A stretch of DNA of 60,777 nucleotides, filler included, from Sphacelaria rigidula (GCA_964200075.2; 4 parts of 4 records of this genome joined end to end with filler, not necessarily neighbours in it); one strand, 5' to 3'; shown: positions 3,185 through 32,300, counted from the first letter of the whole stretch. Program-made: numbers and translations. The notes: generated from the letters alone by a model not told the origin.

Positions 3185-3633
3185 AATGCCCCATGCATTG
3201 TCCATACCAACTTTTACGCTCCAACTCTAAATATTGTGGTGAGCAAACCCATCATGTAAACTTCAAATCCGCCTCTAGGCTGGCCCAGCTCGTATCCACG
3301 AGCGAATAAATTGACGGGAACATTGCTCAAGGAAAGCTCGAGGAAGTGAATATAAGGCGACAAGAAGGCAGAAAACAAACGATCAGACTGGAAAATACGA
3401 GAAAATGCCCCCGCATCATGGTTCTGCTTCAAAGAGAGTCTACCAACAAAAATAAAAGGATAAAGGGGAGGAAAGGAAAGGAAAGGAGAGGAGGGCATGG
3501 AGACAGTAGAGAAAGAAGAAACGGTAGGAAAGTAGGAAGAAAACAAAAGAGAGGGAAGGGAAGCAATCAAATTGGTACCCAGAAACATGTGTACGTGAAT
3601 GCCCGGCAATCTACAGTGCAGTTACGTAGTTAC

Positions 3634-6262
3634 CTTGCAATTGTCTGCAGACCCCTGCCAAACAACGGGATAGTAATAGTCGAACTCGCCGGGCCAAGAT
3701 TCGAAGCACGGAATCTCTACGCCCGCGTAAACTGCGCGATCATTTTCCAGTCAAACAGAGTAACACAAGGGGCATAAGAGGACGCTCACGCGTGGCGGGG
3801 AGGAGCAGTTTCGGCGTACTGCAGCCCAACTCACAAGGATTCACGGTTTGGACAAATCAAATCGTGATTCAACTCCTGTTCATCATTTGAACGAATAAAT
3901 CATACGATTGACACTTTCTACGATAGCCCCCCCCCGAAAAGTGCAAGTTTGGGGGGGCAAAATCTTCACGTAAATCGAAATGGGAAAAGCCGAGCACAAC
4001 GAGAAGCTGGGAATTCTCACGCTCGGGTTCATTCTAGCCAATGTCGACAATATGAGGCGCTTCATGCAGCCTGGAACCGAACATCAGGCGCTGGTTGGTC
4101 CTTTTTTTCGTGACACTTTCAGCTAGTTTGGGGGGGGGGCTATCGTAGAAAGTGTCGATTCGTACATCATTTGTGATTTGTGCATGTTTTGGGTTCGTGA
4201 TTCGTACGACACAAATTGAAGTGTACACATTCCGAGTTCGTGATTCGTGACGTACACCGTGGAAGGTACATGTTTTCTACCTTCCATTCATACCGGGTAA
4301 ATCATGGGCACACGATTATCTCCTTTAGTCCATGTGGGACGAATCATGTGTACATGTCGCCCAACGCTTACTTCATTCGGCATGAATCGCATGTACATCT
4401 GCCCGCCCTTGAGTACATGCGGGACGAACCATGTGTACATGTCGCCCAATGCTTAGTTCATTCGACATGAATCGCATGTACATCTGCCCGTCCTTGAGTA
4501 GATGCGCGACGAATCATGTGTATATGTCGCCCAACGCTTACTTCATTCGGCATGAATCGCATGTGCATCAGCCCACCCTTGAGTACATGCGGGACGAATC
4601 ATGTGTACATGTCACCCAATGCTTAGTTCATTCGGCATGAATCGCATGTACATCTGCCCTGAGATATCTCGGTGTGGATGACACCCCGAAGTATTTGCGG
4701 GGAAGGGGGGAGGGGGGGGGGACGCAAACTGGTGTGGTTCTTCAAGTTGAGTGGTTTGAGGTGTGTTTTTGGAACATCCAGTATGTGTGTAGTGACTTGT
4801 TTGGTTCACACATGAAACGAATCGTACGGTCCCGCAGAGGGCGGCGATTTCTTCCCGCTTTCCACTCGTGATTAATGAGTCATGAATCGTGGGCATGCCA
4901 TTTCCACCTTGCCTCTATACGACATGAATCACGTGTACATGTTTCTCACCTTTCCGTTATCCAGCATGAACCAAGGGTACGCATTCTCCCCTTTTCATCA
5001 TGAATACATGAGTCATGGATACATGTCTCCCACCTTGCCTTCATATGGCATGAATCATGGGTACACATGTATCCCCGATAGTTCATGCGGGATGAATCAT
5101 GTGTACATATCTCCTACCTTACTTAATACGGCATGAATCATTGATACATGTCTCCTACCCCTTAGTTCATGCGGGATGAATCATGGGTACATAATTTCAC
5201 TCTCGTTTTCATGCGGGATGACTCATGGGTACATGTGGCCCACCCTTTGGTTCATGGGGGATGAATCACGGGTATGTGTTTTCCACCAATGATTCGTACA
5301 TGGACGATGATTCGTACGTGGTTTTCAACACCGATTCGTGTTGCACAACCTGAAGTGTACACATTCCAAGTCCATGATTAGTGCGACATGACCTTGAATA
5401 TACAACTTCACCATTCATCATTCGTACCAGATGACTCAGTGGTACATGATTCGCACTCGAACATTCATCAGGAGTCAACCCGTATAAACTCTGATTTGTC
5501 TGAACCGTGCAAGGAATGCATCGCAAACGGTAACAAAGGGCGGAATAAGTGTTTTTTGCCTTTTGCAACGTCAAGCTTTCCTATTGCAATTATTGCGCCA
5601 CCTGATATTGAAGGTGTTGTGTATATTACACATATTCGTAGTTCATCACCCCCCAAATAACTTCCATGTTTCATTTTCCTCCGCCACACTATCAACTATT
5701 TCCCCTCCTTCGGATAAGTCCGTGGTCTCAAATTATAAATCAAGCCATATCCCCCGCGGTACACACCCTGAATATTGGTCTCGCGGATTGGATCAGAACC
5801 TCCGCACCGTGTCGACTGTCGTCAAGCAAACTCATTGAACAAACGCAGTCAAGACAAACTATCTTCACTACGTCTTCACGCCCTCACACTTCCAATGACG
5901 GATATCAGATACTTTGAACCAAAAAAATCTGAACGTATCTGGCAGGAATCGTACCCGCGTTTTGTCTACCCCAGTAGTGTCATTTTCACCAATGAGGCGC
6001 GGCGAGCATCATATTCGGATAATTCCATGTTTGGTCTCTGTCGTCGGCCGACCTTCCACGACGGCGACAACGACCACAAAAGCACCGCACGACTTACGTG
6101 TGAACGTTGCATCGGCCGGGTCATCATCACTGCCAGTACCCTTGATGGTGAAGTCGACCATGGTGTCGGGTTGCAGACCGCAGATCGCGGTACTCCACGC
6201 GTCGCCCCCGCCGCCGCAGGTGCACGAGAACACCTTGCCCAGCACTTGAGCAGACTCTTCCT
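3634..6262 (-). CDS. Two internal exons of an unknown gene (6262-6098 and 3731-3634)
   Basis: Exon 6262-6098 has a ctacag acceptor, encodes EESAQVLGKVFSCTCGGGGDAWSTAICGLQPDTMVDFTIKGTGSDDDPADATFT, and ends at a GTAAGT donor in phase 1. It joins in phase to exon 3731-3634 (gcgcag acceptor, LYAGVEIPCFESWPGEFDYYYPVVWQGSADNCK, GTAACT donor). Other exons were not identified. Confidence 0.55.
3910..4156. mobile_element. MITE, GACAC family copy 1 (4-bp TSD gatt)
   Basis: TIRs gacactttctacgatagccccccc and gggggggctatcgtagaaagtgtc, with gatt on both sides. Homologous copies lie at 32364 and 59251. Confidence 0.9.
4330..5290. repeat. Minisatellite of ~39-40-bp units (79-bp dimer) with a catgaatcatg/tacatgt core
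   Basis: Four ~79-bp repeats at 4330-4660 and a degenerate array at 4880-5290, interrupted by about 210 bp of unrelated sequence. Confidence 0.85.
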
Positions 6263-9170
6263 CTGTAGGTATGAGAGAGTCAGAGCTGCAGTTCGTCGCT
6301 GGCACAGACTGGTGGAGTCCGACACCCAAGGGAACGGCGCGCGCGGGGGGACGGGGCAATCAGTACTGTGAATCTAGACATCAATCGTGACCCAGGGAGG
6401 CATCGCCCGCTCATATCTGCAGACCTCAGACATATGTACTCCGAAGATCAAGGACCTTCATTCAACATAGGAGGTACACTTATGACACTGCTTAGCAGCA
6501 TCACATGCAACGTTGCGGGCAATAACGGTAGCCATAATATACAACAATCGATAAAGGTATCATTGCGGGGTATTTGAAAACCTTCAAAACTCAGGGCTAC
6601 GGACGACTGACAGCAAATCTCATTATCAAACGAGAGGGGGAGCTTGAGCTTACAGAAGGAAGTAGTCCGATCACAAAATATCGAACAACAACGTTGGGGC
6701 TGAAAATTGCGCTGCGTGTACGTGGTCAGGGACCAAAATCTCACTTTTGGATAATGAGTGGATAAATAACAAAGTCTACGTCGAATTGGGGGGCAGGTTG
6801 GACTTCCGCTTGGTCAAGTAGGTGACTGCTGCTCGTGGAGGTAAGTGTATGCGCCTTCAAGCTGGTTCGTGATGACCATGTCATTTCGCTCGACTCTACG
6901 CGAACGAACTCAAGAGGCGGGGAGGAAGACATCACATGTGTGTTGTGTGAACTGATTTGACATGACTGTTTCACGACTGAGTGACAAATGAACAAACCCG
7001 GCATACAGTTCATCAACGATCAACACACATCGATCGAGATCGAGATGAGTCACAAAGCAGCCAAAACGCCCCGCTCGTTTCGACTTTACATTCTCCCCGA
7101 CCTTCTCCCCGACCGCCACCCGTCTGGGGCTGGTTGTGTCGGGGTAGGCTAACCCCATCGACAACACAACCAGTAAGTAAGGGAGGGTAAGTTGACCTAC
7201 TTTGCCTGCGTTTCGTGTCAGTGGTGATGCAACAGTCTAGGTCGTGGGTCATACCGACGGTGCCAACGTCCAGGCTCGATCCTGCAGCTTCGGAGTTCTA
7301 CCCTAGAATGGGAACCACATTGAACCCCGCAGCTGCAGCGTTTTACCCGGCGTTGAGACACTGTCACGGGAATCACGTTGATGGGGATGAGGCATGTGTG
7401 AGTAAGTATCAGATTCGATGGACTGGAGATAGCGGCCGAAGCAGGATGGGAAGGCTGCACCCTCCCCGTGAGATAAAAAAGCAAGGCAACTACTGTGATA
7501 GACGTGCCACAGAAAAATCTGAACAGAAAAAAAGCTCGCCCGTAAAATTAGGAGGCGGAACAGACCGAGAAAGAGAGCCGAGCAAAGTGAGAGACGCGTG
7601 AATATAGAGAAGGCTAAAGCTAGGACGCGTAGTGGGGAGCTCAAAGTGGCTACCTATAACGTCCGTATACTGTCCCTCACGGGAAGAACGGAGCTGGCTA
7701 TACTGAGGTGATCCTGTAGAAATATAAGGCAGTCCGATGTGACGTCATCGGGCTACAGGAATTGAGGAGACCAGGCTGATCCGAGTTTTGGGCGTCGGGA
7801 TATCGTGTCTTTTGCTGCGGGGTAGAGGGGGGCAAGGGAAGGGCTGGTCAACATAGGGCTGGGCTGGCGGTCAAGGAGTCGATCATCAGCAAGGCCACGT
7901 GGACTCAGGCACTCATCAGCGAACACCTCATGTCGATAACTTTCAACCTAGCGGGTAAATCAAATGCTGCTACCTTTGTATTTGCTTATGCTCCTACAGA
8001 CACTCCACAGTCAAGAGAAGAGAGAGATTTGTCCTGGAATGAGTTAGACGGCATTGTCAACCGTATCCCCTACAAACATCATCTGTTTATTTTAATGGAC
8101 GCTAACGCGAGGACTGGAGTACAAACAGGCGAGGAGTAACGTAAAATTGTAGAAGCATTCGGCTGGGACATTTGATCCAATGACAGTAATGGCAAATCTA
8201 TAATGCAGTTTGCAGGCGACAACAGGCTTTTCCCGGTCAACACGTTCTTTTCCACCCCGAAGGGAAACACCTCGCGTACGTTCAACGATGTTGCGAATCG
8301 CCCCGCGGACAAGAAACCCATTGACTATATCATCACACGGCAAGACCACCGCAGGCTTGTTCGCAATGTCACCGTCCACCCTCAACCCCCCAACTCGCTG
8401 GACTCTGACCACAACACTGTGTGCGCCTCAGTGCGGCTCCTTGGTCGCTTCGCACACCACAGACCTAGACGAATCCCAATTGGGCATACACCGATCGACG
8501 GACGGGCAATTGTATCTGACCCCGACAGACGTGAGCAGCTCACCCAGCTCATCACCAGCGAGCTCAAACAGAGTATACAGGGTGATACAGTTTGCTTCCT
8601 GGGTACGAACTTTGCCGACGTACTCTTGGGTGCCGCTGAAAAGGTAGTACCCCGTCTGACCCGAAAGCCACGTATACCGGGGTGGTTCAAGGATGCTGAA
8701 ATCAGAACGGAATTTGAACAGGCCTAGATGGAGAGGGAAAGGGTGGGATCAAGGGTGAGACTGAGATCATCTCGAGATGAACCCGCATGGCGCACATTGC
8801 GAGCAGCATGCAAAAAGTCAAAGAGGGGATCCAAGTTGGGGTGAACAAATATATGGATGTGTATGCTAAAGGACTAGAGGAGTCTACTCGAGCGGGGGAC
8901 ATGAAAGGATGGTACAGACATCTCAACGGAGGGTGGAGACTATCTGGACGATCCATCGAGAGTGAACAGTACATTCGAGATGAGGACGGCAATTTACTGC
9001 GGGACAAAGGTTTGATCGGTGGGAGATGCGAACGGTACTTCTCTACATTGCTGAACGCCACATCGGCAACTATCTACCCAACCGTCATCGAGAAGATTGC
9101 TCAACGACCAGTAGCGCTATCACTAGGAGACCCACCAAAGCCCGAGTGAAACCGAGGAGGCTCGAGAGCT

Positions 9171-10049
9171 ATGTCGAACGGCAAAGCAACCGGTCCGGAT
9201 GATATTCCTGCTGAAATCCTGAAGCTTGGACTCAACGGGGAGGCGTCGGAGATTCTGTACCACTTCCACAACATCGTCTCTGTAGTTTGGACATCTGGCG
9301 AGATGCCGCAACAATGGAAAGATGTCACCATCAAATCGCTACACAAGAAGAAGGATAGGACCGAGTGTGGTAACTACAGAGGCATTTCACTTGTGGTACA
9401 TACTGCTAATGTTCTCCTTAAAATCGTAGGCAGCAGGCTCGATAACTTTTGTGAGGAAGTTGATGTCTTCCCGGAAGAGCAGTGCGGATTTAGGCGCCAA
9501 AGATCGACCATAGACATGACGTTCGTAGTACGCCGACTCCAGGAGTTGGGACGGACGAACAACATCCCAGTAAACATGTGCTTGATCGATCTGCAGAAAG
9601 CCTACGATTCCGTAGACCGCACGCTCCCGTGGGAAGTGCTTGCTCGGTTTGGAGTCCCGTCGCGAATGATCACGATCAGTCCTATATTTCACGACGGCAT
9701 GCGAGCTCGGGTACAGCAAGATAGTGGCGAACTATCAGCTTGTGTCCACGTCTGCCAGGGACTCAGACAAGATTGCGTTTCGTCTCCGCCGTTGTCCAGC
9801 ATCTTCGGAGCAGGCTTTGTGGAAGTGATCGTTCAGCGGTTTGCGGCGGACCCAGTCATCGTCTTGGACTTGGTCTTTCTAGATGATGCGTCAAAAGGTG
9901 ACGGTGGTGAACCCATGGAAGAGACACCGCTGGAAAAGGAGCGACGCGCGGTGTGGGCAGTGCTTGATGCGGATGACGCCGGCATAGCCTCGAGGACCTC
10001 AGAAGGCCTTTCTCGAATGATGGCCATGATGGTGATGACTTGCCAGTAA
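9171..10049 (+). pseudogene. Reverse transcriptase domain fragment of the RTE LINE
   Basis: 292-aa ORF with non-LTR RT motifs, truncated by a stop codon, with a degenerate catalytic motif. Confidence 0.9.
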
Positions 10050-15123: not shown

Positions 15124-15222
15124 NNNNNNNNNNNNNNNNNNNNNNNNNNNNNNNNNNNNNNNNNNNNTTAATTAATTAANNNNNNNNNNNNNNNNNNNNN
15201 NNNNNNNNNNNNNNNNNNNNNN
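15124..15222. other. Assembly gap with artificial TTAATTAATTAA linker
   Basis: N-run/ttaattaattaa/N-run. The same construct occurs at 30346-30444 and 45563-45662; other gaps lie at 22136-22145 and 41107-41796. Confidence 0.95.
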
Positions 15223-16456
15223 NCCTACTGATTATCTTGCATTCGGATGACAGCCTCCAATGAGTTGCTTTATTTTCTGGTATCGCCACTTCCTGAGCAC
15301 TAGTCCGGGCAAATTTGGTGAGGCATCAGATAATATTGCTAATTTGGCCATAGGCTGTCGCTACCGTGCGCTCGTGTATTGTACAAAGATATGTGTGAGC
15401 GTTGCCGGCATCCGAGGTCATCGGGACAGGGCGGGTAAGAAGCAGAAGCAAATATGCGAACCTCGCAAAGCCCGCCAGATTTTTTTCGCGTTTTTTTGTC
15501 AGTGTTTGTTGACCAATTTCTTTCAACAATATCAACAAAAAATCGACAGAATGTCGACAATTTCCGAAAAATTGCCCTCCGGGAACGGGGGGGTAGGGGG
15601 GGGGGCTCCGTGTCCGAATTGTTCCTTACGCGACAGACCCTTGGCTGCACCCAAAAAAAGCGCATGAAAACAAGCGCCGCCGCTTTTCTTCTTGGAGGGG
15701 AAGGGGTATCGCGGCGACGAATGAACGTTCTTCTTGTTCCTTGGTCCCGCTTCCCGACGTTTCTCAGCACATTGTTTTCCGATCGAAAATGTGCAGTGGA
15801 AAAGGAAAATTCCGATTTGATAGGCCATGACCTCAACTATCATCATTAATGTTGACACGACGACCTGTCTGGTAGATCGGAATTTTGTTTTCAACCACAT
15901 TTTTTCGAACGGAAAATAGGTTGCTCAACGTTTGATCATTCTTCGAGTCTATTTGAGTTGAGGGATCTGACGACGTCCGGGAACTCAATTCCCTAGATGA
16001 GTGTCCCCTCTAGCCCTTTTATCGGGCTACTGAAACAAGAATTGGGATTGTGTGATGTTCGATTGTGAAGCTATCATGCTGCCTCCGTGCGCCGAAAGGT
16101 TCCCAAACATTGTAAGGTATACTCTACTGTCGCCTTTTTCTCGCTCCCTTTTTACGAGTCTTCTTGTGGTACCGCAGGGAGAAGCTTTCATCTGGTAAAA
16201 AAAATATCCTTGAGAAGCCCCGAAACATTGCCCTCTCTCACTGCCCCCCAGAACTCAAACGCCAAAAGCCAAAGATTGTCGCAAATATTCACAGGTGCTT
16301 CAGATATAATACGGTGTGCTCTGTCTTGGCGTTCTCTCATGTTTTTTCTTTCTCACGTTCGGCTCCATTCGCGTTTGTCCCATACTTTCACCCGCTTTTC
16401 GTCATCTCCCAAGGGCGGATCAAACTTTGCCGATCATATGTACGCATCTGCACCAG

Positions 16457-19400
16457 GACCGTCTGGCTCCGTTTTCCTCGCGGGGCTTTCAGCCAGCAAC
16501 TGGACCCTCCCTACATCCAGCCCTTCGGCAAACACCAACAACACTGTACCCGACCTCCTCAACAAAGGAATGAACGATTTCGCCGCGGTGAGCTTAGGCA
16601 GCACGGGGGCTCTTCGATGGCAGTGGCAGGTGAGATGTCGAAACCGTCGCTGGCAGTACCGCGGGCCGTCGGCCAAAACTGGTGTTGTAATGTGCCTGTT
16701 TTTTTGTCTTTGTTTGATTTGTTTTCAGCGTTTTTTCTCAATTTTTTTTTACTCTCAGACAGCGACCCCCCCCCCCCCTCCCCCCCATACGTGGACTAAG
16801 ATGGACAATGCCACATTTAGGGTTCAGGATACTATATATTTTTCTCGCGACACGAAACGCCTGTTTCATGAACATGTAGATGTTTGGCATTTTATGGAGA
16901 AAATTGTCCCGGAGAACCCCTGACCAGTTTTGACCCTGCAGTCAACCAACAGCCGATCATCAAAATTGAGGGTAAATGTTTCCGTTGAGGATGAGCAAGC
17001 CCCGGAACGGCGCATGAAAATTGCCAATATATTTGTTCCCCGAAAATACTTTGATAGTTCTTGGATAAAAATGCGAGTTCGGCAAAAAATCCGAAAGGTG
17101 CCCTGAACCCTCTACAGTTTACTTTGGTCCAGCGGACCGCCCGAAACTCAAAAGCCACGCGCGACCCCTATTTATAATAATCCGACTCGCCGCTGATAAT
17201 TACTGTTCTTATTATTTCGTATTAAAACTGGCCGCCGGAAAACAATGTTGCATGTGTACTGGGTCAAACCTGAACTCCCAAGTTCGAAAGGCGCTTTCGT
17301 TTGGTTGAAATTCAAATTCAGGTCTTGAACCACATTTAAAATAAAAACAATCCCGACCACTATAGGTATGGGTGACACAATCATTTGAGCGATCCGGTTG
17401 GACCTTGAGAATTCGAATCTCACTCTACTGCTCCTTTTATGTTGACCTTTGGCAACCGAACTCTCCGGGGGAAAATATATGGGCACTTTCCGCGCGCCGT
17501 TCCGGGACTTCCTTGTCCCCAATGAAAAGCTCCATCCTCAATTTTGATGATCGGCTGTAGGCTGCGTGCAGAATGATCATGTGTGCTGTATGTCTTCGCT
17601 GGATAACGACAACAGACTGAGCGTGTCATCGCTCTCCATTGAACAGTCTATCGTGTATTACTCACAATCCAACGCTTCCCACGGTGTAAATCGGACGTTA
17701 CGAAAAAAAACCCATTGCATCGGGAATCGAACCCTCGTTCTCTCCACCCTAATGGCGACACTCGGAACATCACACCACCGGGGCGCGGCGGCGCGTAATG
17801 GGGTGTGTCGAACGTATGACGCCGAAAAAGATTAGAGGAGAACGAACACGTGCCCCAACATGTCACACTCACGGATGTCGAAGAGGTTGAGGAGGAGCCC
17901 TTCACGCGAGGAGCGCGGATTGTGGGACGAAGAAAGTAACGCCCAAGAAAAATTCCGTGCTCTTACCGTACAGTATGAGTACGTGCTTTTTGTATATCGA
18001 CGCTGACCAGAAGCGTTCGACGCAATTTTCAACAAAACGCTGTGTGTGTGCACCGCTCTTCAACAGAACGAACGAACCCTGTTTTAAGTCTATATATATT
18101 TTTGTGGGGGTGTGACAATGCGTGTCTCGACTCGTTCCGGTAGGACGGTACCGCGCAGAACGACGAAATACATGGGGCAGCCTCTAACGTCAATGGCTCT
18201 GTTTTGCTGGTGGGGGAAACTGGTGGAAACTGGGCCGGACCTAGCGCCGGGGGCGCCGACTTTGCTGCTGTCATGTTGAATTCCGACGGAAGTGTTGAAT
18301 GGAGATGGCAGGTAAGCGACACGAACTTATGTGCTGGGTGGAGGCAGTGTTTTTCCGTCGGCTTTTTGTCTTTTCCTTCTTTTCTCTTTTTGGCCCTCGT
18401 CTCGTGTGTTGTCATCGTGACGAAATGGGCGTGTGCGACCGATGGAAGAATGCCCGGCGCAATCGTGATCCCGGTACTGCGAGATGACTCCTCCCTCCTG
18501 CGTGTGTTGTGGTGGTCCTTGGTGGTCGGTCGTTCGACTATTATATGACTTCGCTGCGCAGGACGGTACGGCCTCGATAGACGAGATGCACGCTGTCGCG
18601 GCAGACGCAGATGGCACGTTCGTCTTGGCAGGGTTTACGTTCGGAAACTTCGATGGCTTGCACCAGGGCGGAAGTCGCGACTTTGTGGCTGTCAAGCTTG
18701 ATGGTGACGGAAGTGAGATATGGCGCTGGCAGGTGAGGGGACCTCCGGAGACGACCAGAACGGGTGCTCTCCACTTTGTGTCGTGTGTGTTCCGTGCTTG
18801 CGGCTTGAACATGATTACGTTGAGCTTTTTTTTTTCCATCGCAAGATCGTTACTGTCATCAGATCAGACGGGATTTCAGGTGACGTCTAGAAACGCGTTC
18901 GCGCCGCGCAATATCAATCAACCGTGTGAGAGGCGATAGCCCGATTCATCTCCAAAATTTGCGGATGAATGCCGTGGCATCGCCGCTGGGGGCCACGATG
19001 TCCACGTTATATGGTTGGCTAGACGATCGGCGAACGTGGGTGAAAAACTGAATATTATACCTTTGGAGTCGGATGAAGTCAAGAGTGCACACCTGGTTGT
19101 GCAACAAAACCAATACTAAGGCTACTTCTTCTGTGTAAAAAAATGAATCTTCTTGAAAAGTGCATATCTGGCTCTTCTCCGTCGTTTTCCCTCCGAAAAA
19201 AGAGGGCTAGGCGGATGTTGACACCTTGGAATGACTTGCTCTACTCGCTGAGGCCGTTCCAGAGCACCTTTGCGTTTTCCGTACGTCACAGTTTTCGTTT
19301 TTGGTCAAAATTACATTTTCAATAACAAACGGTCAAGTTATTAAAGAACAGGGGGGAAAACTGACACTTTTTTGGTAAGTTGACTGTTTGTTATTGAAAT

Positions 19401-22044
19401 TTGTTTCAAGTGTGATGTGACCAAAAACAAAGCTGTGACGTACGGAAAACGCAAAGGTGCTCTGGAACGACCTCAGCGAGTAGAGCAAGTTATTCCAAGG
19501 TGTCAACATCCGCCTAGCCCTCTTTTTTCGGAGGGAAAACGACGGAGAAGAGCCAAAAATGCACTTTTCAACAATATTCATTTTTTGATACATGAGAAGT
19601 AGCCTAATAGGTGCGTGAAAAACGGGGTGGCCTCAAGTCTGATTTGGGTTTTCTCGAGCCACGAACCGTCGCGCTGGGGACGTCTCAAACCACCAACGTC
19701 TTTTCACAGCGGTCTAATCGAGCACTTATCTCCGGTGACACAACGGTGCCTTCATCTCGAGCGTGTGGATCGAAGAATAAATACACCCTTCGCACGACAT
19801 GTGTTTTGTTTTACGCATTCATGCATGTGCTGCAAAGGAAACGAAACATGAATGTACATCGCTGCTCGCACAACTCAGCGAGTTTTTCTTCCGACGTGCA
19901 CGTTCTACTTAGTAGCCGTGGCTGATGCGGAGTTCCCCCCATTTCGTTCCACAGGACGGCACCGCCGGCGATGACATGCTGAGGGCCGTGACCGTAGCGA
20001 GAGACGGCTCCATTGTCCTGGCCGGTTCCACCGAGGGTGCCTGGAATGGAGTGTCCACTGCCTCGTATTATAATGCCGATTTCGCCGCTGTCAAGCTTGA
20101 TGCTGCCGGGACGGAGGTGTGGCGCTATCAGGCGAGTGGCCGTGTGTCGGCTGTTTTTCATGCACCTTATGCGTAGGCGCCCTACTAGAGCTACGCCATC
20201 CTGCGACACGCGTTTTCCTACTACTGTAGCGATCCGACACATCTCTATAATTTTACCGCGTCAACCTCGCAAATTACTCCGATAATAAACACGAAATTTC
20301 AACAGCGTGTGTGCAACCCGCGCGGTGTTGGGTGTACACAACGCTGCCGTACTTGGCCTCATCACTGCCTCCCCGCTGTGCTTTTTCCCCCTCAATACCC
20401 TCTCGTCGGGGCCGTTATTTTTTGCGTTTCGCGTGCAGTTGACGACTCCTTCGGCCCGTGTCTGAAACGCCACGCGGCGATATCCATACATTCCTGTCGC
20501 GGAGATCGCCTGTAGTGTCTTTTCAACTCACCCTCAGTTCGTCGATTGTTCGTGTTTTTATTTTTGTGGCGCAGGAAGGTACCGGAAGCACAGAACGTCT
20601 CCACGCAGCAGCAGTGGGAGGAGATGGCTCCGTCATTCTCGCCGGCGATACTTGGGGAAACTTCGCTGGCGCAAACTACGGAAGGCTTGACTTTGCAGCT
20701 ATAAAGCTAAACGCGGCCGGCGTTGAGCAATGGCGGTGGCAGGTGGGATCCAGATCATGACGGATGGCGCCGCTGGGAAAAGTTGCAACGTTTCATGGTA
20801 GGGTAGGCATGGGCGGGATCGCTGAGGCGTGGCGACACCGCGTGATATCCTACCAATGGTACAGCACTTGCTCCTCGATTGGTTTTCTCGTCCATTTTTT
20901 CCCCTGCTCGGCGGATAAATGGTGCGTAAGTATGATGGCTTCTCGATCGGTGAAGTTGATGGTGCAGGTGTGAGTATCTTGGCCGTGAAACAGCGACGGA
21001 GAGGTGGTCATTACGCCAAGAGAAGGTGAAGAGTATTGGAAGCAGAAGTGCGGCCGTCGTATTTGCGGCTGTTTTGCTGGGTATGTGTGAGAGGTGAGGT
21101 TGCCATGCTACAATAACATCTTCAAGAGAGACAGCTAGAAATTAACGTCGCCGGTGGATTGCTGATAACGTAAGTTGGTCATGCAAGCATGCTTGAGAGA
21201 CAGCCGGATATTCAACGCGGATTTATCGTCATTCCTTCGTTCTGCCGGCAGGGAGGAACAGTTATGCAGGACTACTTGTTCGCAGCTTCTATGCTGGGAG
21301 ACGGCACTGTGATGCTGGCCGGAGATACAGAGGGTAGCTGGGGTGCTGTAAACGCTGGCCACAAGGACTTTGTCGCTGTGATTCTGGACAGCAACGGGAA
21401 TGAGACCCGGCGTTGGCAAGTGAGTGGTTTAGTGACTGCCGCAGTCACGACTCCCCTTCCGTTCTGCGCATCACGCTGCGTTGCTTTTGAAAATCCACAC
21501 ACAGTAGCAGCCGCTCGGTGCACGTTCAATCTCCCCACTAGGACCACAACGTGATGCGTGGAGTAGGAAACCACCCCCCCCATAAGCCCACGGAAAAACG
21601 ATGAACATGTCAATAAGAAATACCTCGCACGTCTATCATATGTGCAACCCCGCCACGTGGATTCGGTACCTCGCTTACCGCAGTCAGGGATGATCCCAGT
21701 TGTGACTGCCCGAAATCGATTTGAGTGTTGGTGCTGCATGCATTCGGCGTCCTTTGTCGAGGTCGAGGTGAAGAAGCTCCGCCAAACCCTGGTATAGGCG
21801 GAAGACTTGCCATTGCATGATGCTTCGCGCGCGTCAAACGTTCTCATCGGTTGCGACCGCCCTGCCGGCCGCTTTTGCGCAGGACGGGACGGCGCAAGAC
21901 GATGAATTCGACACAATCGCGCTCGTGGCGAACGGAAGGGTGGTCCTGACAGGATCTACGTTCGGACCTTGGGACGGCGCTCACGGTGGAAGGGGCGACT
22001 TCGCTGCTGTCAAGCTGAACACGGGGAATATCCCCGCGGCCTGA
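16457..22044 (+). CDS. Beta-propeller-like repeat protein, one repeat per exon (5' part not identified)
   Basis: Exons 16457-16629, 18144-18311, 18562-18732, 19955-20131 (GC donor), 20575-20742, 21252-21419 and 21883-22044 (stop). Consensus DGT...D.h.a.....DGsvvLaG.T.G.w.g...G..DFaAVkL...G...WRWQ. All have AG acceptors and splice in frame. Confidence 0.9.
17705..17792 (-). mobile_element. tRNA-like head (SINE head or tRNA pseudogene)
   Basis: The reverse strand reads gccccggtggtgtgatg...gagggttcgattcccgatgcaatggg followed by a T-run: B-box GGTTCGATTCC, a weak A-box and a Pol III terminator. Its start resembles the SINE head ending at 25280. Confidence 0.5.
19120..19604. mobile_element. PIF/Harbinger-like palindromic MITE (TAA TSD) in an intron
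   Basis: TIRs ggctacttct and agaagtagcc, extended by ~180-bp inverted arms. TAA at 19117-19119 and 19605-19607. Confidence 0.9.
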
Positions 22045-24919
22045 ACGTGAACGAATTTTCCATTCCATCCGCCCACCCGCCGGACGCCCCCGCCTCGCGC
22101 CCCCTTCCCACTGCTGCTGCCGCACGCCCTCTTCCNNNNNNNNNNCAAGCGGAAAAGGGGGGAAACCCCCCCGGCCGGACCGGGAAACAATTTTCCCTTC
22201 CCCCCCCCCCCCCCCCCCCCCCCCCCTTCCCTTCCCCCCTCGTTTGTTATTGCCGCTGCGTCGGTACTTGATTATGATTGCTGTCGCCGGTACGTCATCT
22301 TCTGACACGGCAACCCCACCAACCGTTGATGTACTTCCAGCACTCTCAGTAAAGCAGCACCAGTCATGAGTGCTTGTGGATATCTCGCCTGCATGTTGAC
22401 ATCACATGTACTAGCTGCAAAAACATTTGTTGTCAGGGTGAAAGTCGTTGGCGGTGAAACCAATAGGGGAAAGCCAGATAACTCTTGTTTTTTTTTCATG
22501 TTTTTTTTCAAAGCTTGGGAGAACAAACGGTGGAATACGTATGGACTCTACTGAGATAGGGTGGTGTGGAGCAATTGCTTTTTTTGCGACGTTCGACTCG
22601 CATGGAGTCAAGCCAAAGTCCAGGGACTGCTCTGCAATTGCTTGTCAAGGACTGTGCCAGCCAGCCCCGTAGACCGTCGGGTACGGCACCCCTCGTCGAC
22701 ACCACGTGGCACTAGATTTGTCTCCGTGTGGATTGGTACTAGATGGGAGAAGGAAGCGGGATAGTGTCGATGTCGCTGACAGGGTAGGCGTTGTGACTTG
22801 ATCCCCCCCCGCCCCCCCCCCCTCCCCAAGCCGCGGGCTGTGGCAGGTAGGAGTCGTGATAACGTGGTCAGAGTGAGGTGCTGAGCTCCTGTGTGTGCTG
22901 CAACGCGCGAGCGCTAGTCAGTCACTTGTTTACTTTATTTGTCCCTCATTGCGGTGTCTTGAAAGCAAAGCAGAAAAATACAATGAAATTTATGAGGAAT
23001 AAAAGAAGAAACGGGGTTGCGAACGGAAGTAGACAAGGGCAATAGCTGATGCCGGAAAAATCCCCCCAAAATCCAATATTTACGATTCGACAATTTTTAT
23101 GCTTTTAATGTTATTTTTCTACAGTAGATAAGAATGAGTGAAAAATCTCCCAAGTCCGAATACAGCCATGTACAACGAATGGGACCGCCGAACCCGCGCG
23201 CGAGCGCCTTGTGAACATCGTACGGTAGATTTAACGTATAGATTGAGTCGCTAGTTTTACTCCCCGATTCTTGGATGCCGTGTGTCGTACCAGCGCGTGT
23301 GAGTGTCTGAACTTTGAAAACCCTGGAGTCCGGTATCTTCTAATCGAATTGATGTACGTCTTCGTTGGCGTAGTCCTGCGCAATGTCCTCACATTGACGG
23401 TTTCCCCATGTCATTGGATGACGCCTCAAAATAGTCGTACTCCACACGAGGTTTACACGGGGGTGTCGCATTCGATGTACCGGAGGTTGAGGACGTTTTA
23501 GACATGATCGAGGTACTGCCATTGCGTTTGGGGTCCCTCAAGCCCCCCCCCCCCCCCCTTCCCCCTCCCCCAGGCCAAGCGTGTATTATACGAGGGCAAT
23601 CGCGCAAAGATTCGCCGTACGTTATGTTGTGCATCATTTATAGCGAGTGAATTTGTAGACCCCACAACAGTGCTTGAAGGTACAGCGTGTTTCTTTTGAA
23701 CTCATGCTCGTAATATTGGACTGCTTGTTTTAGGACCATGGTTGTTCAGCGAACGTGTATATGTAAACTATATCGCGTAGAGAGGAAAGCGCCTTTCCGC
23801 CGTTGTTCGTTCTGTAGACTGACTTGACCCTTCGACCGCCAAGCTGGATAATTCGTTGACTCGGCATCATTATTTGCGGTTTGAAAACGAACGTGAGATG
23901 AAGATGCCCCCCCCCCCCCCTGACGGTTCGAACGATGGAGCTCCAAGTGGTCAACGCCAATTCCAAGTACTGCAAGGAGGAACGCACCCGTTTGAATATA
24001 ATGCTCTGGAATTGTGTGTTTTGATTGACTGTGCAAGACGTGGGGAGTATGAAAGTATACTCTGTTGCATACGGGCTTGGTTGACCGTCGTAAGCTGCGG
24101 GTTCATCTTGCCGTCTGGGAGTTGTAGTGGAGTGACTTCTTCTGTTTTTTGCAAAAAATGCTGTCTTATAGTTTATGTACTTTTTGTGTGTTCATCCGAA
24201 TATCATAGATTTTGATGGCGGTTGAGTGGAAATTCTTGAGACCGTAGAGTTTCGAATAAAGTTCCTGGTCCAGTTATCGGAATCGTGTTGTGAAGAGGAC
24301 GCCATGGGGTACTCCCCCCTTGTTGCGGTATCATTGTCTCTTTGACATAAGCCGAGAAGGGTGCTAACTCAGGCTTTCGACAACCAGCCATACCACGGAG
24401 ATATCGTTGACTTGAGCCAGCGCTGCGTGGACCATATATATACATATGTTTAATAAGAGTACGCTCTTGTAGAGGCCTCTGAATTTTCTTATATGGTGAC
24501 GTGCATCGTGGATTGTCGGGCTGGACGCTGCAGGCTTGACCCCCATGTCGCCAGGGAAAACTACAGCACGTAGCGAGCATCATCGATTGTGAGAACAACC
24601 GTGGTGTATTACACACATGTGAGAGGCATGTGTACTCGATATTTGAATGAGAAATGAGGGTGGTGTGGAACGAGACAAGTCGGGGTTTTCCCCTCTTTTG
24701 CTGTTTACCCCCCATCCTCTCTTTCCCTGCACGGACCAGCTCCGTTGTGTTGAAAGAGGCTGCTACTCTCGCAGTACTGTATTGCTTCTGATGACCATTG
24801 AGGCGACATGGTGCGGGAGTGTTGATTCAACCCGCGATATGAACATGTAGGGTGATTGTCGTGGGCGAGATGGGTAGATCCCTGGAGACGAATGACTCGT
24901 TCTGAGGAGGGGGAGACAT

Positions 24920-25280
24920 TTGTGTGTGTGTGTGAGTTGTCGTCCCATCTATTCTGGACGCCGGTCTACACTTTTCGGTATATGCGGGCGCACCAGCCGG
25001 GGTGACACAGGAGAAAGGTCAACACAGAAGCTTTTCCTTTTCTGTTTGTTTTTATTACCCCACCTTCCTTCTGCGGTGCTTGCCTTTCGTTTTTTAGCGC
25101 GAGAGGGGTTTAGCAGTCCCTTTCCCTCGTCGACCGGCAAGTCGAAATTTGTGTACCCACGACATAGCCGGTCGCCACTGTTGATGTGAGAAAAAATCCC
25201 AGATCGCTCCGAGAGTTGAACCCACGACCCAACCGTCAGAAGGTTCCGAGGTTACCAGCTGAGCCACCGGGGCGACCGGC
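24920..25280 (-). mobile_element. tRNA-derived SINE
   Basis: The reverse strand starts gccggtcgccccggtggctcagctggtaa (A-box) ... gggttcaactctc (B-box), followed by a ~270-bp body and a (CA)n tail. Confidence 0.75.
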
Positions 25281-27076
25281 TGACATTCGATGCAAGGAAT
25301 CACATGAACGATATATATATATATATATATATACAAGGTTCCCCTTCGGGAGGGTCGTACGGGCCTCCCGGGGGTGACGCAAGTCGAAAAATTATGGTTG
25401 AGAGAAACTATACTGTTGTATCTAAATGTACAGCGGTGGTCGTGGCTGCACAAAACATCGCACGTGTTATCGGATGTCATTCGGAAATGTGGGAATTCGG
25501 ACGAAGGCCGACGACGGAACCGCCGGCGTATGACGTGTGGTAAACCCGAGGTGCCAGAGTGCAATAAGTAGCTCTCGTGCCACAAAGGACATGACAGCGG
25601 GAGGAATTTCCGGAAAAAATGGAATGCATGGAACATTCTTGGCATGTTCTTTGTACATCATTGTAGCTTTCACACCACCGGGCCGTTTTTTAAAACGGGG
25701 TGATGGTTTTTTACGGCAAAACATTCCTAACAACGTTCTCGTGAAGTTGAGAGTTGAAGGTACGATAGAGAGTGAAAAGCGGTCAATTAGTGAAGTAGCC
25801 GTTTCAGTTCCGAACTGCATCTCCACGAGGCCCAACATTCTCTCTGTAGTAGCTTCCCACTGAGGCACTCGATACCCCTGAGTAGGATATCAGCATATAG
25901 CTGTAAGCACATGGCAGCGATGAGACGACGAAAAGCTCACACGGGATAAAAATTTGGCCAAGTTAAAGCGGATGATCAAAGCCACTCTCAATCCGCACCC
26001 AACTCTCAATCTCACGAAAACCTTGTTTCCTGTGCAGCGTGCTGCTATGCCCTGTTCAACTCGCCAACGGCCCATTGCACGATCTTGTGTTTGCTGCTGA
26101 CGAAGGCCAAGGCAATGTTCAATTGTTTTCAACTGCTTTGCTCTCATGTTCTCGTGACACTGGCGGCATAGCCGGTGTGCTCGTTCTGCTAAATGAACGA
26201 GAACGCGACAAAGAGAAGCACGAGAGAAAAATACCCCGCCAAAAATACTCCTGTTTCAAGTTTTGCATGATCTTCAATAGGCTTTTGTGGTTCGGGTTCC
26301 TGTTTCAAGTTTTCCATGATGATCTTGAAGAGGGTTTTATGGTTCGGGATCGACACCCTACGAAAGAGTCAGCTTGAGCGACTTTCGGTGGCCAGACCAC
26401 GCGCCATAGGTATCAGATGACGCCCAAACCCGAACGGTAATGTATCGCTGAGCCTTCTTAGTGCGCTGCAAAAGAAAGCGTGGGAAAAAATGCCTTGCCA
26501 TCAGAGAAAACTGGGTAAAAGTAGTGGTGAAAAATGTGAAATGATACGTGTACATATATATAATGGATGTCATCAACTGAACGACTATGGTTACGAGTTC
26601 GATAATGATGGAACAATCGCTTCAAGATCGCGCTGGACTCGAGTGCAGTACGAACCATGCGTTGGCAGATGCGTTCTAGATTCCGCTGGGCGGACATCTA
26701 CGTGCAGAAAGCTCCTCCTGCGCTGTGTCGTCTGTTGGACAAAGAAATATACCCCGGTGATGTAAAGGTCTTGAGCAGACGGTTGCACAAGGTATGACGA
26801 GATCCCACCCATGCGTCAAATGAAACGTGGTGACAGACGAATTTGTTGGCATCTTTACGAATGCCGGGACTTGAGGGTAGGTCGCTCAGGTCCACGTCTG
26901 GCAGGCATTCTCCTTGAGAAACTTACGAAGTTGTCCATCCTACGGGTGGTTCAATTCACAAGGTGATTAATGTGCCATTTCTGTAGCGAACAAAGGCAAT
27001 GGGCCGGTCAAAATTCCACGCCCGAAAGGTGTAAAGAAAATGGCGTGAGGGCAGTAAGCCAAGTCCAAGCCCGCCC

Positions 27077-29350
27077 TCAAAAATAGCCATGTGTCGCGGG
27101 GCGGTGAAGCCGCACGGGAAGTAGCGGTTTGACCACCACGACGTGAACAGGCGGCCGGTGGCAGTCGCTGAGGGCGTGAGTGGGGCCCAGCCGGAGCAGG
27201 CGGCTGAGACTCGGCGCAGGCTTCCGATGGGTTAGTAATGGCCGAATGGATTGGCCCTGGTTACGCCGCCAGAGTGTCAGAGACCGACCTGGCATCGGAG
27301 TCAGCCGCGAGCGGCGGAAAGGCAGAATTTCGTAGCTCCGTAGCGGTTGTGGGGTTGACGGGGACAGCGTCAGCGTCAGTGGCAGCAGCGGTGGTGGTCG
27401 GAGCAGGCATGGTGTAATGGCGATGACCTGCATTAAGACCACCACCAACACGGGACGGGGTGTAGCCCGAGGTCGCGGAGCGCACAGTGTCAAGTGGACG
27501 ATGTTCAGAGGACGTGTTCGAAAATAAGTCACGCACGTCTTCTCCACACTCTCACAAGAAGACAGAAGTCCCACCGGCTACCGTACATGGTACTATGCAC
27601 CAAGACCTACTACTGCCTCACCGTGACAAGAGCAAATTACATTCTTTGAGACACACTTGCAGACCAACACGTATATCCACAACTCACTGTTCACCCACTG
27701 CTCCTCCTTACTATCGAGCGGCCTTTCTCCGCTTGTTGGCGGCCCTGGGTAGGACGCTGAGAATGGCTGCGGCCTTCAATGCGTAGTAAACCATCATCCG
27801 CAATCATAACCGCGGCGGACGTTGTGATTGTGACCAGTATGGCGGAGAAAACTCGCGAGGCACGCTACGATAGGGGAGGGTATTTTGGGCCGTTTTCTTC
27901 CACGAAATTCGACTCCAATCGCCATTGAAAGCAGCCAACAGCTGTTCGAACGCGCTTGCTCCCGATGAATAACGCTCATTCATACTGCTTTACACAGCTC
28001 TTACCCAACTTCAAGCGCACCACGAGTGTCTTAGATCATTTGGCGCATCTATGAGCACATGTTTTCGTGGAATCGAACCCCCCCCTCCCTCCAATCGTAG
28101 CATGGCTCTCGCGCCCCCACAGCCGAAGAAACCAAGGCCGTATTTCGTTCAGGAGCGGCCGGGGCCCACATATAGGGCAGCTAGGGCTTATCCTCATCGA
28201 TTTCCGGAGTGACCATGAAGGCTCGCCATCATTGGCCGTCGCTGTCAGCAGCAACAACTTTTAATAATCAGGCCAGGCAAGACACTCCGCGTTTAGAGAA
28301 TGTTACCGGAGACATTCTCGGTCTCTCCGATGGCGATCGTTTTGCCGTACCGATCGTTCTGCCGTACCCTTGTTATCCAACAAGGGCCGTACCCTAGCTG
28401 TGACAACCACTGCTGTAGCCCTACGTATTGTCGTGGTTGACGTTGCCACTGTCCCACAGCGCCATTGTGAGGATGACAGTATCACTGGATCTGAGCCCGC
28501 CAGTGTCGCTGCCGTTAGTAGACGGCACAATGTAATGAACATCAACAAACTGTGGCACATCAACACTGTTCCTCCCGCTACTGGTGAGGAGTCAGGAAAA
28601 TATACATCTATTCTCTTCACATCAGAACGACATACACTGACCAATATATTGCAATGGGCTGATGTCTCTGGAAACCAACAATTTTCTGGCGGCACAAGAA
28701 TTGGCAGATAACAGACCTCGTTTCACAAATTCTTGTATTATGGCATCAACAAACGTGCAACTCCCAATTCGGAGTTGCTCTCACTCACGTCATTGATGGC
28801 TGATTCACCATGTTGGCTGCCGACAAGATCCACGGAAGCCGTAGGCCAATAACTCTCATTTGGAGCGGTGTATGAGATTCTCCTTCGACCGTGATCTCCA
28901 GGCTGATGCCAGCCACCCAATGGCTTAGTTCGTTTTTCGTAGCTGCAGACGTCGTATTCGCCGAAAACCTCCGCGAACTCAAGAGTTTAGTGCCAACTAC
29001 GGCAGGAAACGGGCGGAGGAATGGTCCAATAGACCGAATGTGCCAGCCATACATTCAGGATAGTATCGCCCACTAGTGCCTGTCATTGATGGCTTGTTTC
29101 CCGGCGAGCTTGCTACCCGGGGCGTATCATAAGCATACCACAAGCTTCTGTTGAGGCGATGTGAACTGATTTTGTTAGCCAAGAAAAAAATCTGGCGCCC
29201 GCAAAAGCGGCAAATCTTACGCTTCTGTACTTTTGCAGCCACACCTTGGCCGCTCTGCGAGCACCCATTCTGCACCACGTGGCCGCACACAGACTATTTG
29301 AAGTGCGCCTTGGATTCCTGATTCTGTCCAGTATTAGTGCTGAGGACCAA
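27077..29350 (-). mobile_element. Highly degenerate LTR-retrotransposon integrase/3' pol relic
   Basis: Fragments YAYDTPRVASSPG...GRYYPECM (zinc-binding region-like) and YWPTASVDLVG (start of the catalytic core-like region), with many stops. Boundaries are uncertain. Confidence 0.4.
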
Positions 29351-32300
29351 AATGATTCTTTTCCTGCGAGTTTTGATGGATGACCCCAGTCTGCAAAGAC
29401 TTGGGACCAATTTTGTTTCTCTCTCTTTTCCGTCGTGGACTACAAATGATCCACACTTGTAGCCGTCCCTTCCTTCATCAGCTGATGGACGTGGCGCTTT
29501 CAGTAGTCACTCGAACATCTGTAGTATCAATAGTTCTGGCCAAGGCCGAAGCATGCATAACTGTTCTGAATTTTGCATTAACACGTTCGGTCTCACCAAC
29601 TCTGAAATTCACACCAACAAGCCGGCATGGTACCTACCGATGGCAAAAGCTCAAGCGCAACTTCCGCATTCTAAACCGTAACTGGCCTAGTCACAACGGT
29701 GACAGAAATCATCAGAGATCCAACAACGGTCGCCGTAACTTTGATGATCGTGACGAAAGCATCAAGAACAGCAACGTTTTCTCACCAAAGATATGGTTTA
29801 TCTTCTCGAGGCAACCACCGCAGTGATGACCGTCATCAACGGACTGAGCTGAACCCTGTGACTCAAAACCGAACAATCGGAAATGATTTTTTTCATGACG
29901 CATCGAACGGTTCAATGACTGTCCGACGTCGGCATTTTCAGTCTTCGGCGCGGTCGACAACACCCACGAAGTAGTACCCTAATGGTTTTTTCAGCATTTC
30001 CCACGGAGCCAGCGACTAATCGTTTTTGCTTGACCCCTTCGGTGCATCATAGAAATAAGTGCCTGCCGAAACATACCATACCCGCGCCACCTCTCCCGTC
30101 TCGATCTAAAAGCCATGTTATTTCGCTCATGTTTTGCACGCAGATCTGGAACTGCCCCCCTAAAGATGAGTGCAAGTCTCAGGTGTGCAATTCCAGACCG
30201 CCAATCGTCGGGGCTACGGCTTAACCCCGCAATAGCACGCGACGGTGGTGAGTTCTCTTTCGTTCAGTCCTGCACGACGGATTTGGACGCCGTCACTTCG
30301 GACCATTGTGCATCGGTTCAAGAGTCATCCTACGATAGGGGGGGGNNNNNNNNNNNNNNNNNNNNNNNNNNNNNNNNNNNNNNNNNNNNTTAATTAATTA
30401 ANNNNNNNNNNNNNNNNNNNNNNNNNNNNNNNNNNNNNNNNNNNNGTGGATTCTGGAGAAGTCCCTCACTGAATAGCCCTCTTGTCCAGATCGTCTGGCA
30501 GAGGCTATAAAGCACGATCGAGGTGCATTCATGACTAGGATGCGAACGTCCATATGTCGGCGTAGTCTCTGTCCCTACAGACGGCAACGCTTTAATCGGA
30601 AATGGGTTCTAACGCAGTGCACGAGGGGTGGTCAGGGAGCGATAACGATCTCTTCGAAATTTGGGGAGTACCGGCCTGTTCCACTCTAAAGTTTCCATCT
30701 GTCTGAGCCCACACGCAATCTCTCCCTTGGAGTTCACGTGCGCTTGCTACATCAGGGTTATCTTCATGACCATCTGGAGGAGCCCGCCTAGGGTGACGCG
30801 TATAGCGCACAAAAGGGTCGGCGGCTCCAGGAGCTATTGAAATGAGTTATCGGACACCCGAACCTAGGTCACGCTCATGGCGCACCACCTGAGTCGCTGT
30901 CACTTGAGTGTGTGGCTTTGAATTTGGTGTTCCCCGATAAACAGTCGGAGAGGCAGTGTCTACCGTAACAGAAGATATTTCGGCTCCGGATGCGTTAGAA
31001 ACTGCACTACATGACTTCCTCTCCTTCGAAGGGAAGGGGTTCGATTGAATGCGATTGATACCTGGCGGATTTAAAACCGGGTGATCAAATCCAGGATCAA
31101 AACGTTGGGTTTGGTCAATGCTCCATTGATAGCCATGCGACGGTGCACGGGCCTCGACTGTCTTGGAACCCTTCAAGGCAGTGCCAGCATATCCAGGGAA
31201 CCCACACCACATGGTTGAACCCGCGGTGGCCGTCGTTGATTCACGTGTGTGATGTTTGTGACCTGGCCAAGCGAAAACAAATTGTTGACATAAAATTGTT
31301 GGAAACTTCTGCGGTGAAATACCGGTCATTGTTTATTTCTGATTGTGGGATTGTACCCACTGATGATAAATAAACTACAGAAGTAGAAAATGAACAGGCA
31401 GGTGGCGGCGCTTAGGTTTTGGGCTAAGCAACGCGTCCCGAGTTACTCCACTGGATACTATTTGGAATCTCCGAAACGTATAGAACGTTCCCAAAAGGTT
31501 GTCAAGTTGTGAGGTGGGCATCAGTGTTGTGTGGGTACCGCCCTGGTGGGGTGCGGAGGTCATCGTCAGGAAAGGTTTTCGTAGCATTAGGGCTCCCGTG
31601 GAGAGAGATCCATCTTAGAACGAAGAGTGGGAACACCGTCGGCGGTTTGAGTGGCTGGTTGGTGTACAGGGGAGTGGGCACCAACGGGGTTAGGATGAGC
31701 ATATGGAGGAGGGTTGTCTTCATCCACACTCACGTCCCTGAAAAATCGTCCTGCAACAACGCCATCATCAACATCGAAACGTTCCGGTTCGTTGTTGCCA
31801 ACCGTCTCACTACGCATGATTTGGGCTAACTGTGCGGTTCTTTTACCATTGTTTGTAGGGAGCGCACCGCCCTTCGCGACATCGTGCTCCGATGAAGTCG
31901 AAGGGCGGTTGGTATCAGACGTGGCTTGTACATTCTCGCAATTGCGCCAGACCGGTAACGTAGAGATGCGGGAGTTGAAAAGTGAACGTTTCGTTATGGG
32001 AGACAGCATAGTTGTTGAGGACTGAGGTGAGTGAACAAAAATAAAAGGAATAGAATGGCAGGGTACTGTCGACAGTTTTCGATCGACATGTAGGTCCGCG
32101 CACTCCGCACGTGTAGTAATCTATCACTTTTTCCATCAGGTGCAGACGAAAGGAAAACAAATATGTCGAAGGCACACAACAAACCGTATGTGTGTGCGTT
32201 GGTAGATAAAGTGTAGCAGCAAAGAGACAAGAAGAAAGCGAAAGTTGTCACAATCAACAGACATACAGTGGCTGTCACCAGCGAAACAGCGCATTGGACA

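Follow-up and report, generated by a model that had tools for sequence, protein, structure and literature searches.

A Sphacelaria rigidula gene with one blade of a stand-alone SBBP-type propeller on each phase-0 exon

Is a gene that places each of its protein repeats on a separate phase-0 exon built to diversify, or does the layout record how the repeats arose? The question is raised by a plus-strand gene in a 60,777-nucleotide stretch of DNA from Sphacelaria rigidula (GCA_964200075.2), referred to here as the window, in which seven exons within 16414–22044 each encode one repeat of 53–72 residues. An initial annotation of the window proposed a seven-bladed, SBBP-like beta-propeller whose blades could be skipped, duplicated, or swapped without frameshift, and saw in it a candidate hypervariable recognition system. 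The product is a stand-alone seven-bladed propeller of the SBBP type, its fold class being shown on a relative (P0004) and by profile matches. The explanation we consider likely is that the gene is expressed and constitutively spliced and encodes a soluble protein of ~419 residues consisting purely of the propeller, a kinase-less member of its family and a non-enzymatic binder; its blade-per-exon layout would be historical.

The exons were read from the sequence and matched by joints in RNA contigs (Table 1). This confirmed the annotated pattern of one divergent repeat per exon, with the intron after each of the first six exons at the same position, and of five middle exons that are phase 0-0 with 56–59 codons (56, 57, 59, 56, and 56). 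All six introns are phase 0 and fall after W/Y-Q and before D/E/G-G; the junctions in order are WQ^DGT, WQ^DGT, WQ^DGT, YQ^EGT, WQ^GGT, and WQ^DGT, the caret marking the intron. Five introns have GT-AG ends and intron 4 has GC-AG; the cut of intron 4 is ambiguous over 4 bases, within which GC..AG is the sole splice-like pair. Alignment of the seven blades gives the repeat consensus DGTxxxDxxxAxAxxxDGSVxLAGxTxGNWxGxxxGxxDFAAVKLxxxGxExWRWQ, with 30%–52% identity from blade to blade and a 16-residue insertion in blade 1, in the loop between strands 2 and 3. Every exon is intact, and the G, W, D, and F positions conserved in the family are kept. A profile of the seven blades, searched against the six-frame translation of the whole 60.8 kb, produced exactly seven matches (E 6e-29 to 5e-21), the next having an E value of 1.8.

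Of ten public sequencing runs with matching sequence, none registered as RNA, four (X1, X2, X5, and X7) were compared with the window over 16000–22130. The runs span three studies, X1 and X2 coming from one and X5 from another with another organism label. X1, X2, and X5 behave as RNA, with spliced contigs. The lengths skipped at their joints (1514, 250, 1222, 443, 509, and 463 bases) match the predicted introns exactly; all six joints occur in X1 and X2, and five in X5, which has no contig for intron 4. X7 behaves as DNA, with flat coverage of ~24–26; as none of its contigs has one of these joints, a genomic retrocopy is not the source of the spliced form. Summed contig depth in X1 and X2 is ~480–4000 in exon bins versus 0–15 in intron bins free of repeats. 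Counting the exon upstream of the window's first as exon 0, single contigs span exons 0-1-2, 3-4-5, 5-6-7, 1-2, 3-4, and 6-7. All six joints in X1 and X2 attest that RNA does use the arrangement of one blade to each phase-0 exon. Exon skipping, which the initial annotation had suggested looking for, is answered in part: the 15 joints listed, out of 155, include none between exons that are not neighbours, and contigs drop rare variants, such that minor isoforms could escape.

Exon pieces have 0 or 1 difference from the window in all four runs. The stop codon (TGA, 22042–22044) is covered with zero differences by an X5 RNA contig (21883–22068) that passes beyond it into untranslated sequence, and with one difference by an X7 DNA contig (19578–22074). 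The X5 contig departs from the window at 22068 and rejoins it at ~22227, with 10 N and a long poly-C run between; the stretch 22069–22226, which lies behind the stop in the 3′ untranslated region (UTR), looks like an assembly artefact.

At the 5′ end the annotated start of the first exon, 16457, proved wrong. The exon starts at 16414, behind an AG acceptor, and not at the in-frame ATG at 16438, because the blade profile matches upstream of 16438 and RNA contigs match from 16412–16419. Upstream of 16412, contigs of X1 and X2 continue for another 184–255 letters that the window does not contain, and the last 30 of these letters encode, in frame, M-A-S-A-E-I-W-R-W-Q. A search of the window for this sequence with up to 3 mismatches allowed did not find the exon; its two matches were the ends of exons 3 and 5. 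The first exon is located off the contig, and the gene has at least eight exons. The N-termini of relatives are alike (MATE.W.WQ, MADLSEVWLYQ, and MEGPTELWRWQ). As regards a putative lectin-like or secreted role, no signal peptide was found in the visible N-terminus, and no membrane segment in the product. The contig of the propeller gene occupies 15224–30345 of the window, which is strung together from contigs by N44-TTAATTAATTAA-N44 linkers at 15124–15223, 30346–30445, and 45563–45662, so sequence across a linker need not be a true neighbour.

The proposal of a seven-bladed SBBP-like propeller was borne out by the retrieval of SBBP proteins, by alignment with all blades of a solved propeller, and by the fold of P0004. 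Among 1.84 billion representatives, 17519 proteins match the blade profile at E ≤ 1e-3. Among the top profile matches scanned, Pfam SBBP (PF06739) is above cut-off in 10 of 23 and DUF5122 (PF17164) in two of 23. SBBP-bearing proteins with 4–11 SBBP stretches, such as P0020, P0059, P0061, and P0065, are matched at E 1e-37 to 1e-57, and hhalign of the blade profile with a blade of P0059 gives a probability of 96.6%. Homology to the Pfam SBBP and DUF5122 repeats is thus seen by profile. Against solved structures, the profile matches CylK only (E 9.4e-21), with all seven CylK blades in the same register. The match is confined to the CylK propeller (chain residues 248–649), with identity of ~28%.

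AlphaFold2 modelling, which had been suggested for the spliced protein, was done instead on P0004 (41% identical over 403 residues) with a 30-sequence alignment, and it yielded a propeller fold for that relative. The model has a mean predicted local distance difference test (pLDDT) score of 84.3, a predicted template modelling (pTM) score of 0.80, and 28 strands arranged as 1 + 6x4 + 3. A WQ^G boundary lies at the end of every fourth strand, so one exon corresponds to four consecutive strands. The best Foldseek match of the model is CylK (7fh6; E 1.7e-29, TM score 0.76, root-mean-square deviation 2.0 over 400 columns). The C-terminal propeller of CylK (PDB 7fh6 and 7ron) has the same fold and the same repeat register as the window product; the differences are that CylK is an enzyme from bacteria, carries an additional N-terminal domain, and is encoded by an uninterrupted gene.

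Applied to the window, this arrangement would make each in-window exon four consecutive strands, that is, one blade, with the introns placed in the turn that links a blade's last strand to the first strand of the following blade. The first exon, off the window, would supply the start codon and one strand (EIWRWQ), and exon 7 only three strands. The N-terminal strand would then close the ring against the strands of exon 7 in a 1+3 'velcro' closure, a topology suggested by strand counts (TELWSWQN in P0004, EIWRWQ here) and not by coordinates. The protein is most likely a non-enzymatic binding module, and its partner would be bound on the face that bears the loop of variable length joining strands 2 and 3.

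All named relatives come from brown algae (Ascophyllum, Scytosiphon, Ectocarpus species, Undaria, Pylaiella, Hapterophycus, Sphacelaria, Discosporangium, and Choristocarpus); they are 38%–46% identical to the window protein, the closest identities being 46% over 361 residues for P0166, 42% over 385 for P0002, and 41% over 403 for P0004. Six of them (P0002, P0162, P0164, P0167, P0168, and P0170; 38%–42% identity over ~360–410 residues) carry a kinase domain after the propeller, each with one membrane-like segment between; two carry PF09815, and others are short. Propeller-type ('QAD') receptor kinases of brown algae were reported in 2024, in a paper whose main text, in the parts accessible, makes no mention of exon structure (Denoeud et al., bioRxiv 10.1101/2024.02.19.579948). 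The window protein shares with these receptor kinases the seven-bladed propeller, the motif DGT…DG.v.LaG.T.G.w…DFaavKL…G.e.WrWQ, and the N-terminal closing strand; unlike them, it has no Ser/Thr/Pro linker, membrane helix, or kinase and stops after blade 7. The reading frame ends 13 codons after the last DFAAVKL strand, with no membrane helix after the propeller. P0004, P0163, and P0006 likewise have no membrane-like segment, and other members of the family also have no kinase. There was no kinase in the window: a tblastn search with the Ascophyllum receptor kinase P0002 matched only the seven blades, its kinase part giving one match elsewhere at E 1.4. Pfam scans of the open reading frames (ORFs) of the window found only reverse-transcriptase and RNase H domains, elsewhere, and no ROC-COR or NB-ARC signalling domain in the gene. 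Within this brown-algal/stramenopile family, the window gene appears to be an unremarkable relative of the propeller receptors that has no kinase, and its protein may act beside kinase-bearing paralogues.

The brown-algal proteins P0006, P0007, P0011, P0018, P0165, P0166, P0168, P0171, and P0162 begin at the closing strand (MATE.W.WQ) and have no signal peptide. This set includes receptor kinases whose propeller, described as extracellular, would have to cross the membrane. Relatives from other sources (P0005, P0023, and P0031) have a signal peptide.

The introns also bear on how the propeller arose. The six junctions in the mRNA all have the form (C/T)A(G/A)^G. At 18 further AG^G sites in the exons there is no intron, a count that is suggestive only. 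The layout is probably a record of history, in one of two ways: a unit of blade plus intron may have been amplified to build the propeller, or introns may have been gained in parallel at a recurrent CAG^G proto-splice site. Amplification, by which the introns would be identical by descent, is the simpler of the two. Single-exon ORFs in other genomes that might betray the same intron sites gave four candidates, none significant. A literature search on blade-per-exon propellers returned nothing usable, and as far as the searches show, the blade-per-exon gene structure of this propeller family had no earlier description in the literature searched. Human RCC1, a seven-bladed propeller of an unrelated repeat family, is said to have about one repeat per exon, which would make it a blade-per-exon precedent taken to reflect exon duplication; the literature searched did not confirm this.

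Several points, together with the position data on blades given below, weigh against the explanation proposed here. None of the seven single-exon translations reaches a Pfam cut-off: the best DUF5122 score is 12.9 bits versus 27, and SBBP gives no match. Most of the closest brown-algal relatives likewise stay below the cut-offs, P0006, P0007, and P0023 matching no Pfam family. The fold of the window product would carry over from a relative with 41% identity and not from the spliced protein itself, and the function proposed is argued from fold and family membership. No more than 30 letters of the upstream exon are visible, and coding sequence still further upstream, for a signal peptide for example, may exist. 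No true orthologue was found (best identity 46%). The historical reading of the introns would rest on the window gene and not on gene structures of its brown-algal relatives. The gene of P0005, a protein that gave six metagenome loci, is one uninterrupted ORF of 1794 nt (locus L001, 4517–6310), so introns at blade boundaries are not universal in the family. L001 is on a gene-dense metagenome contig with a GC content of 34%–47%, on which the neighbours of the P0005 gene are RING-finger, GNAT, and PAS hybrid histidine kinase genes.

The rival reading raised by the initial annotation is that phase-0 blade exons are skipped, duplicated, and swapped by splicing or shuffling, giving hypervariable recognition like that of the ROCO-LRR and NB-ARC-TPR genes. 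All blade exons are symmetric (phase 0-0), and any skip or duplication stays in frame. The middle blades of distant paralogues also have no positional orthology, and over all blades it is weak. In a FastTree tree of 98 blades (P0166 and P0017 left out as near-duplicates), the position label needs 59 changes versus 66.7 ± 2.4 when shuffled, and for blades 2–6 only, 41 versus 43.1 ± 2.2; blade identity between distant paralogues is 39.8% at the same position and 37.6% at other positions, versus 40.8% within one protein. In pairs that include the window protein, just 0–3 of seven blades find their best match at the same position. Old turnover or homogenisation of blades in the family may fit these data, and saturation at ~40% identity may explain the same numbers. 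Blades of P0011 (Discosporangium) are mutually 71%–77% identical, which shows that blades were recently amplified or homogenised somewhere in the family. The range across P0011, P0141, P0136, and P0032 is 71%–85%, which implies recent re-amplification or homogenisation. Interchangeable cassettes and hypervariable recognition are nevertheless unsupported by blade number, blade order, spare exons, recent duplication, or splice joints. Seven blades are present in 17 of the 22 relatives examined, the others being two six-blade models (P0014, labelled partial, and P0022) and three short models of 253–268 residues with four or five blades; an eighth blade match in P0005 is the velcro strand. Of the 186 fetched proteins that have one or more blade matches, 71 have seven, 31 have six, and 45 have 12–14. 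Blade order is kept for all seven blades in two orthologue pairs, with same-position identity of 93% versus 41% elsewhere for P0165/P0166 and 82% versus 36% elsewhere for P0171/P0017. The comparison of blade number and order therefore upholds a kept count and collinear orthologues, and position is almost lost between distant paralogues. Neither a six-frame profile search nor tblastn found in the window any blade exon that is orphaned, decayed, or on the opposite strand, the kind of exon reported as the hallmark of LRR/TPR shuffling (PMC3341825). Exon nucleotide identity is 44%–63%, and 80-nt intron flanks are 38%–60% alike versus 48 ± 6% for random 80-mers, indicating no recent duplication. 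The 15 joints listed connect only adjacent exons, and the exons from runs of three studies are identical or differ by a single letter. It is also established that a closed propeller tolerates changes in repeat number less than an open solenoid does and, unlike the solenoid, does not allow them freely; since it needs its full set of blades, the layout is not a working diversification device. The known systems differ in these respects. Accessible parts of the literature describe ROCO-LRR and NB-ARC-TPR genes as having variable numbers of LRR or TPR exons and orphan exons, located within introns and on the opposite strand, and report that a genome-wide phase-0 screen left almost only LRR and TPR loci (Zambounis et al., PMC3341825); LRR exons are alternatively spliced, again according to the part of the source accessible (Teng et al., PMC11378527). 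As described there, both are open solenoids with variable repeat number, orphan exons, and alternative splicing of repeat exons. The window gene comes from the same group of organisms and resembles them in its repeat-per-phase-0-exon layout only; it encodes a closed fold of seven blades, with no orphan exons in the window and no skipping among the joints listed. We regard interchangeable cassettes as quite improbable. It is only slightly easier to credit, and still improbable, that the blade-per-exon layout is a family-wide trait of brown-algal propeller receptors in which single blade exons are replaced, re-amplified, or converted between blades and paralogues with the count kept at seven.

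Two other explanations concern what the gene makes. It could be the decaying remnant of a propeller receptor kinase that has lost its membrane and kinase parts and is transcribed with no function. In many relatives blade 7 is indeed followed by a linker, a membrane helix, and a kinase, the window frame stops 13 codons after the DFAAVKL strand, and an assembly gap and a poly-C run follow at 22136–22230. Decay is not what the gene itself displays, however: its seven exons are intact with their conserved residues, splicing is clean and contig depth high, and the stop codon is identical in RNA and in an independent DNA run. Kinase-less members occur elsewhere in the family, P0004, P0163, and P0006 among those with no membrane-like segment, and a remnant is accordingly unlikely. 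An enzyme like CylK, with the propeller taking part in Friedel-Crafts alkylation, is suggested by the status of CylK as the closest solved structure both by fold and by sequence profile. The limits of that match, to the propeller at ~28% identity, argue against it, and nothing in the seven exons or the visible stretch of the 5′ exon corresponds to the first ~245 residues of CylK. The N-terminal domain of CylK contributes to its active site. An enzymatic role is highly improbable, and a non-enzymatic, kinase-less propeller remains the explanation we prefer.

Introns 1 and 3 of the gene hold repeats. Intron 3 contains a hairpin resembling a miniature inverted-repeat transposable element (19119–19605; 183-nt arms, 93% complementary) with very high summed depth in DNA and RNA runs, indicating a high-copy dispersed element. 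Its match to MIR837, the sole Rfam match on the contig, scored 57 bits versus a cut-off of 117 and was taken as a hairpin look-alike. Intron 1 contains an inverted-repeat element (16936–17571; 108-nt arms, 77% complementary), and many DNA contigs join 16943–16945 to 17563–17580 with other letters between. The same intron holds a high-copy repeat at ~17435–17844, and a very high-copy repeat is placed at 17640–17844; ARAGORN found no tRNA in the window, including the latter stretch. On other contigs of the window, remains of retroelements with RVT_1 and reverse-transcriptase-type RNase H domains were identified at 9150–10046 (+) and 38802–39551 (−), and an open frame at 49254–51554 (+) has 767 codons and matches no Pfam family. 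Further gaps in the window are 689 N at 41107–41795 and 10 N at 22136–22145.

Table 1. Exons and introns of the propeller gene in the window, with the joints seen in contigs of the sequencing runs.
Feature	Position	Strand	Description
Exon 1 in window (second exon of gene)	16414–16629	+	Blade 1, 72 codons; acceptor AG 16412–16413; profile match from ORF residue 117
Intron 1	16630–18143	+	1514 nt, GT-AG; joint 16627->18142 (cut +2) in X1, X2, X5, in no X7 contig
Exon 2	18144–18311	+	Blade 2, 56 codons, phase 0-0
Intron 2	18312–18561	+	250 nt, GT-AG; joint 18307->18558 in X1, X2, X5
Exon 3	18562–18732	+	Blade 3, 57 codons, phase 0-0
Intron 3	18733–19954	+	1222 nt, GT-AG; joint 18729->19952 in X1, X2, X5
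Exon 4	19955–20131	+	Blade 4, 59 codons, phase 0-0
Intron 4	20132–20574	+	443 nt, GC-AG; joint 20128->20572 in X1, X2
Exon 5	20575–20742	+	Blade 5, 56 codons, phase 0-0
Intron 5	20743–21251	+	509 nt, GT-AG; joint 20737->21247 in X1, X2, X5
Exon 6	21252–21419	+	Blade 6, 56 codons, phase 0-0; end CAA^gt
Intron 6	21420–21882	+	463 nt, GT-AG; joint 21419->21883 in X1, X2, X5
Exon 7, coding part	21883–22044	+	Blade 7 strands 1–3, 53 codons; TGA 22042–22044; then 3′ UTR

The gene gives no evidence for a new diversity-generating system. If blade exons did turn over across the family, the propellers would join LRR and TPR as the third class of brown-algal repeats to diversify through exon turnover. 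What the gene adds is a kinase-less, membrane-less member of the recently reported family of brown-algal propeller receptors, in which structural blades and exons coincide exactly with support from RNA. It would be a clean eukaryotic example in favour of the view that propellers arise through amplification of one blade unit, and the intron at WQ^DGT would be a simple marker for tracing the origin of the family.

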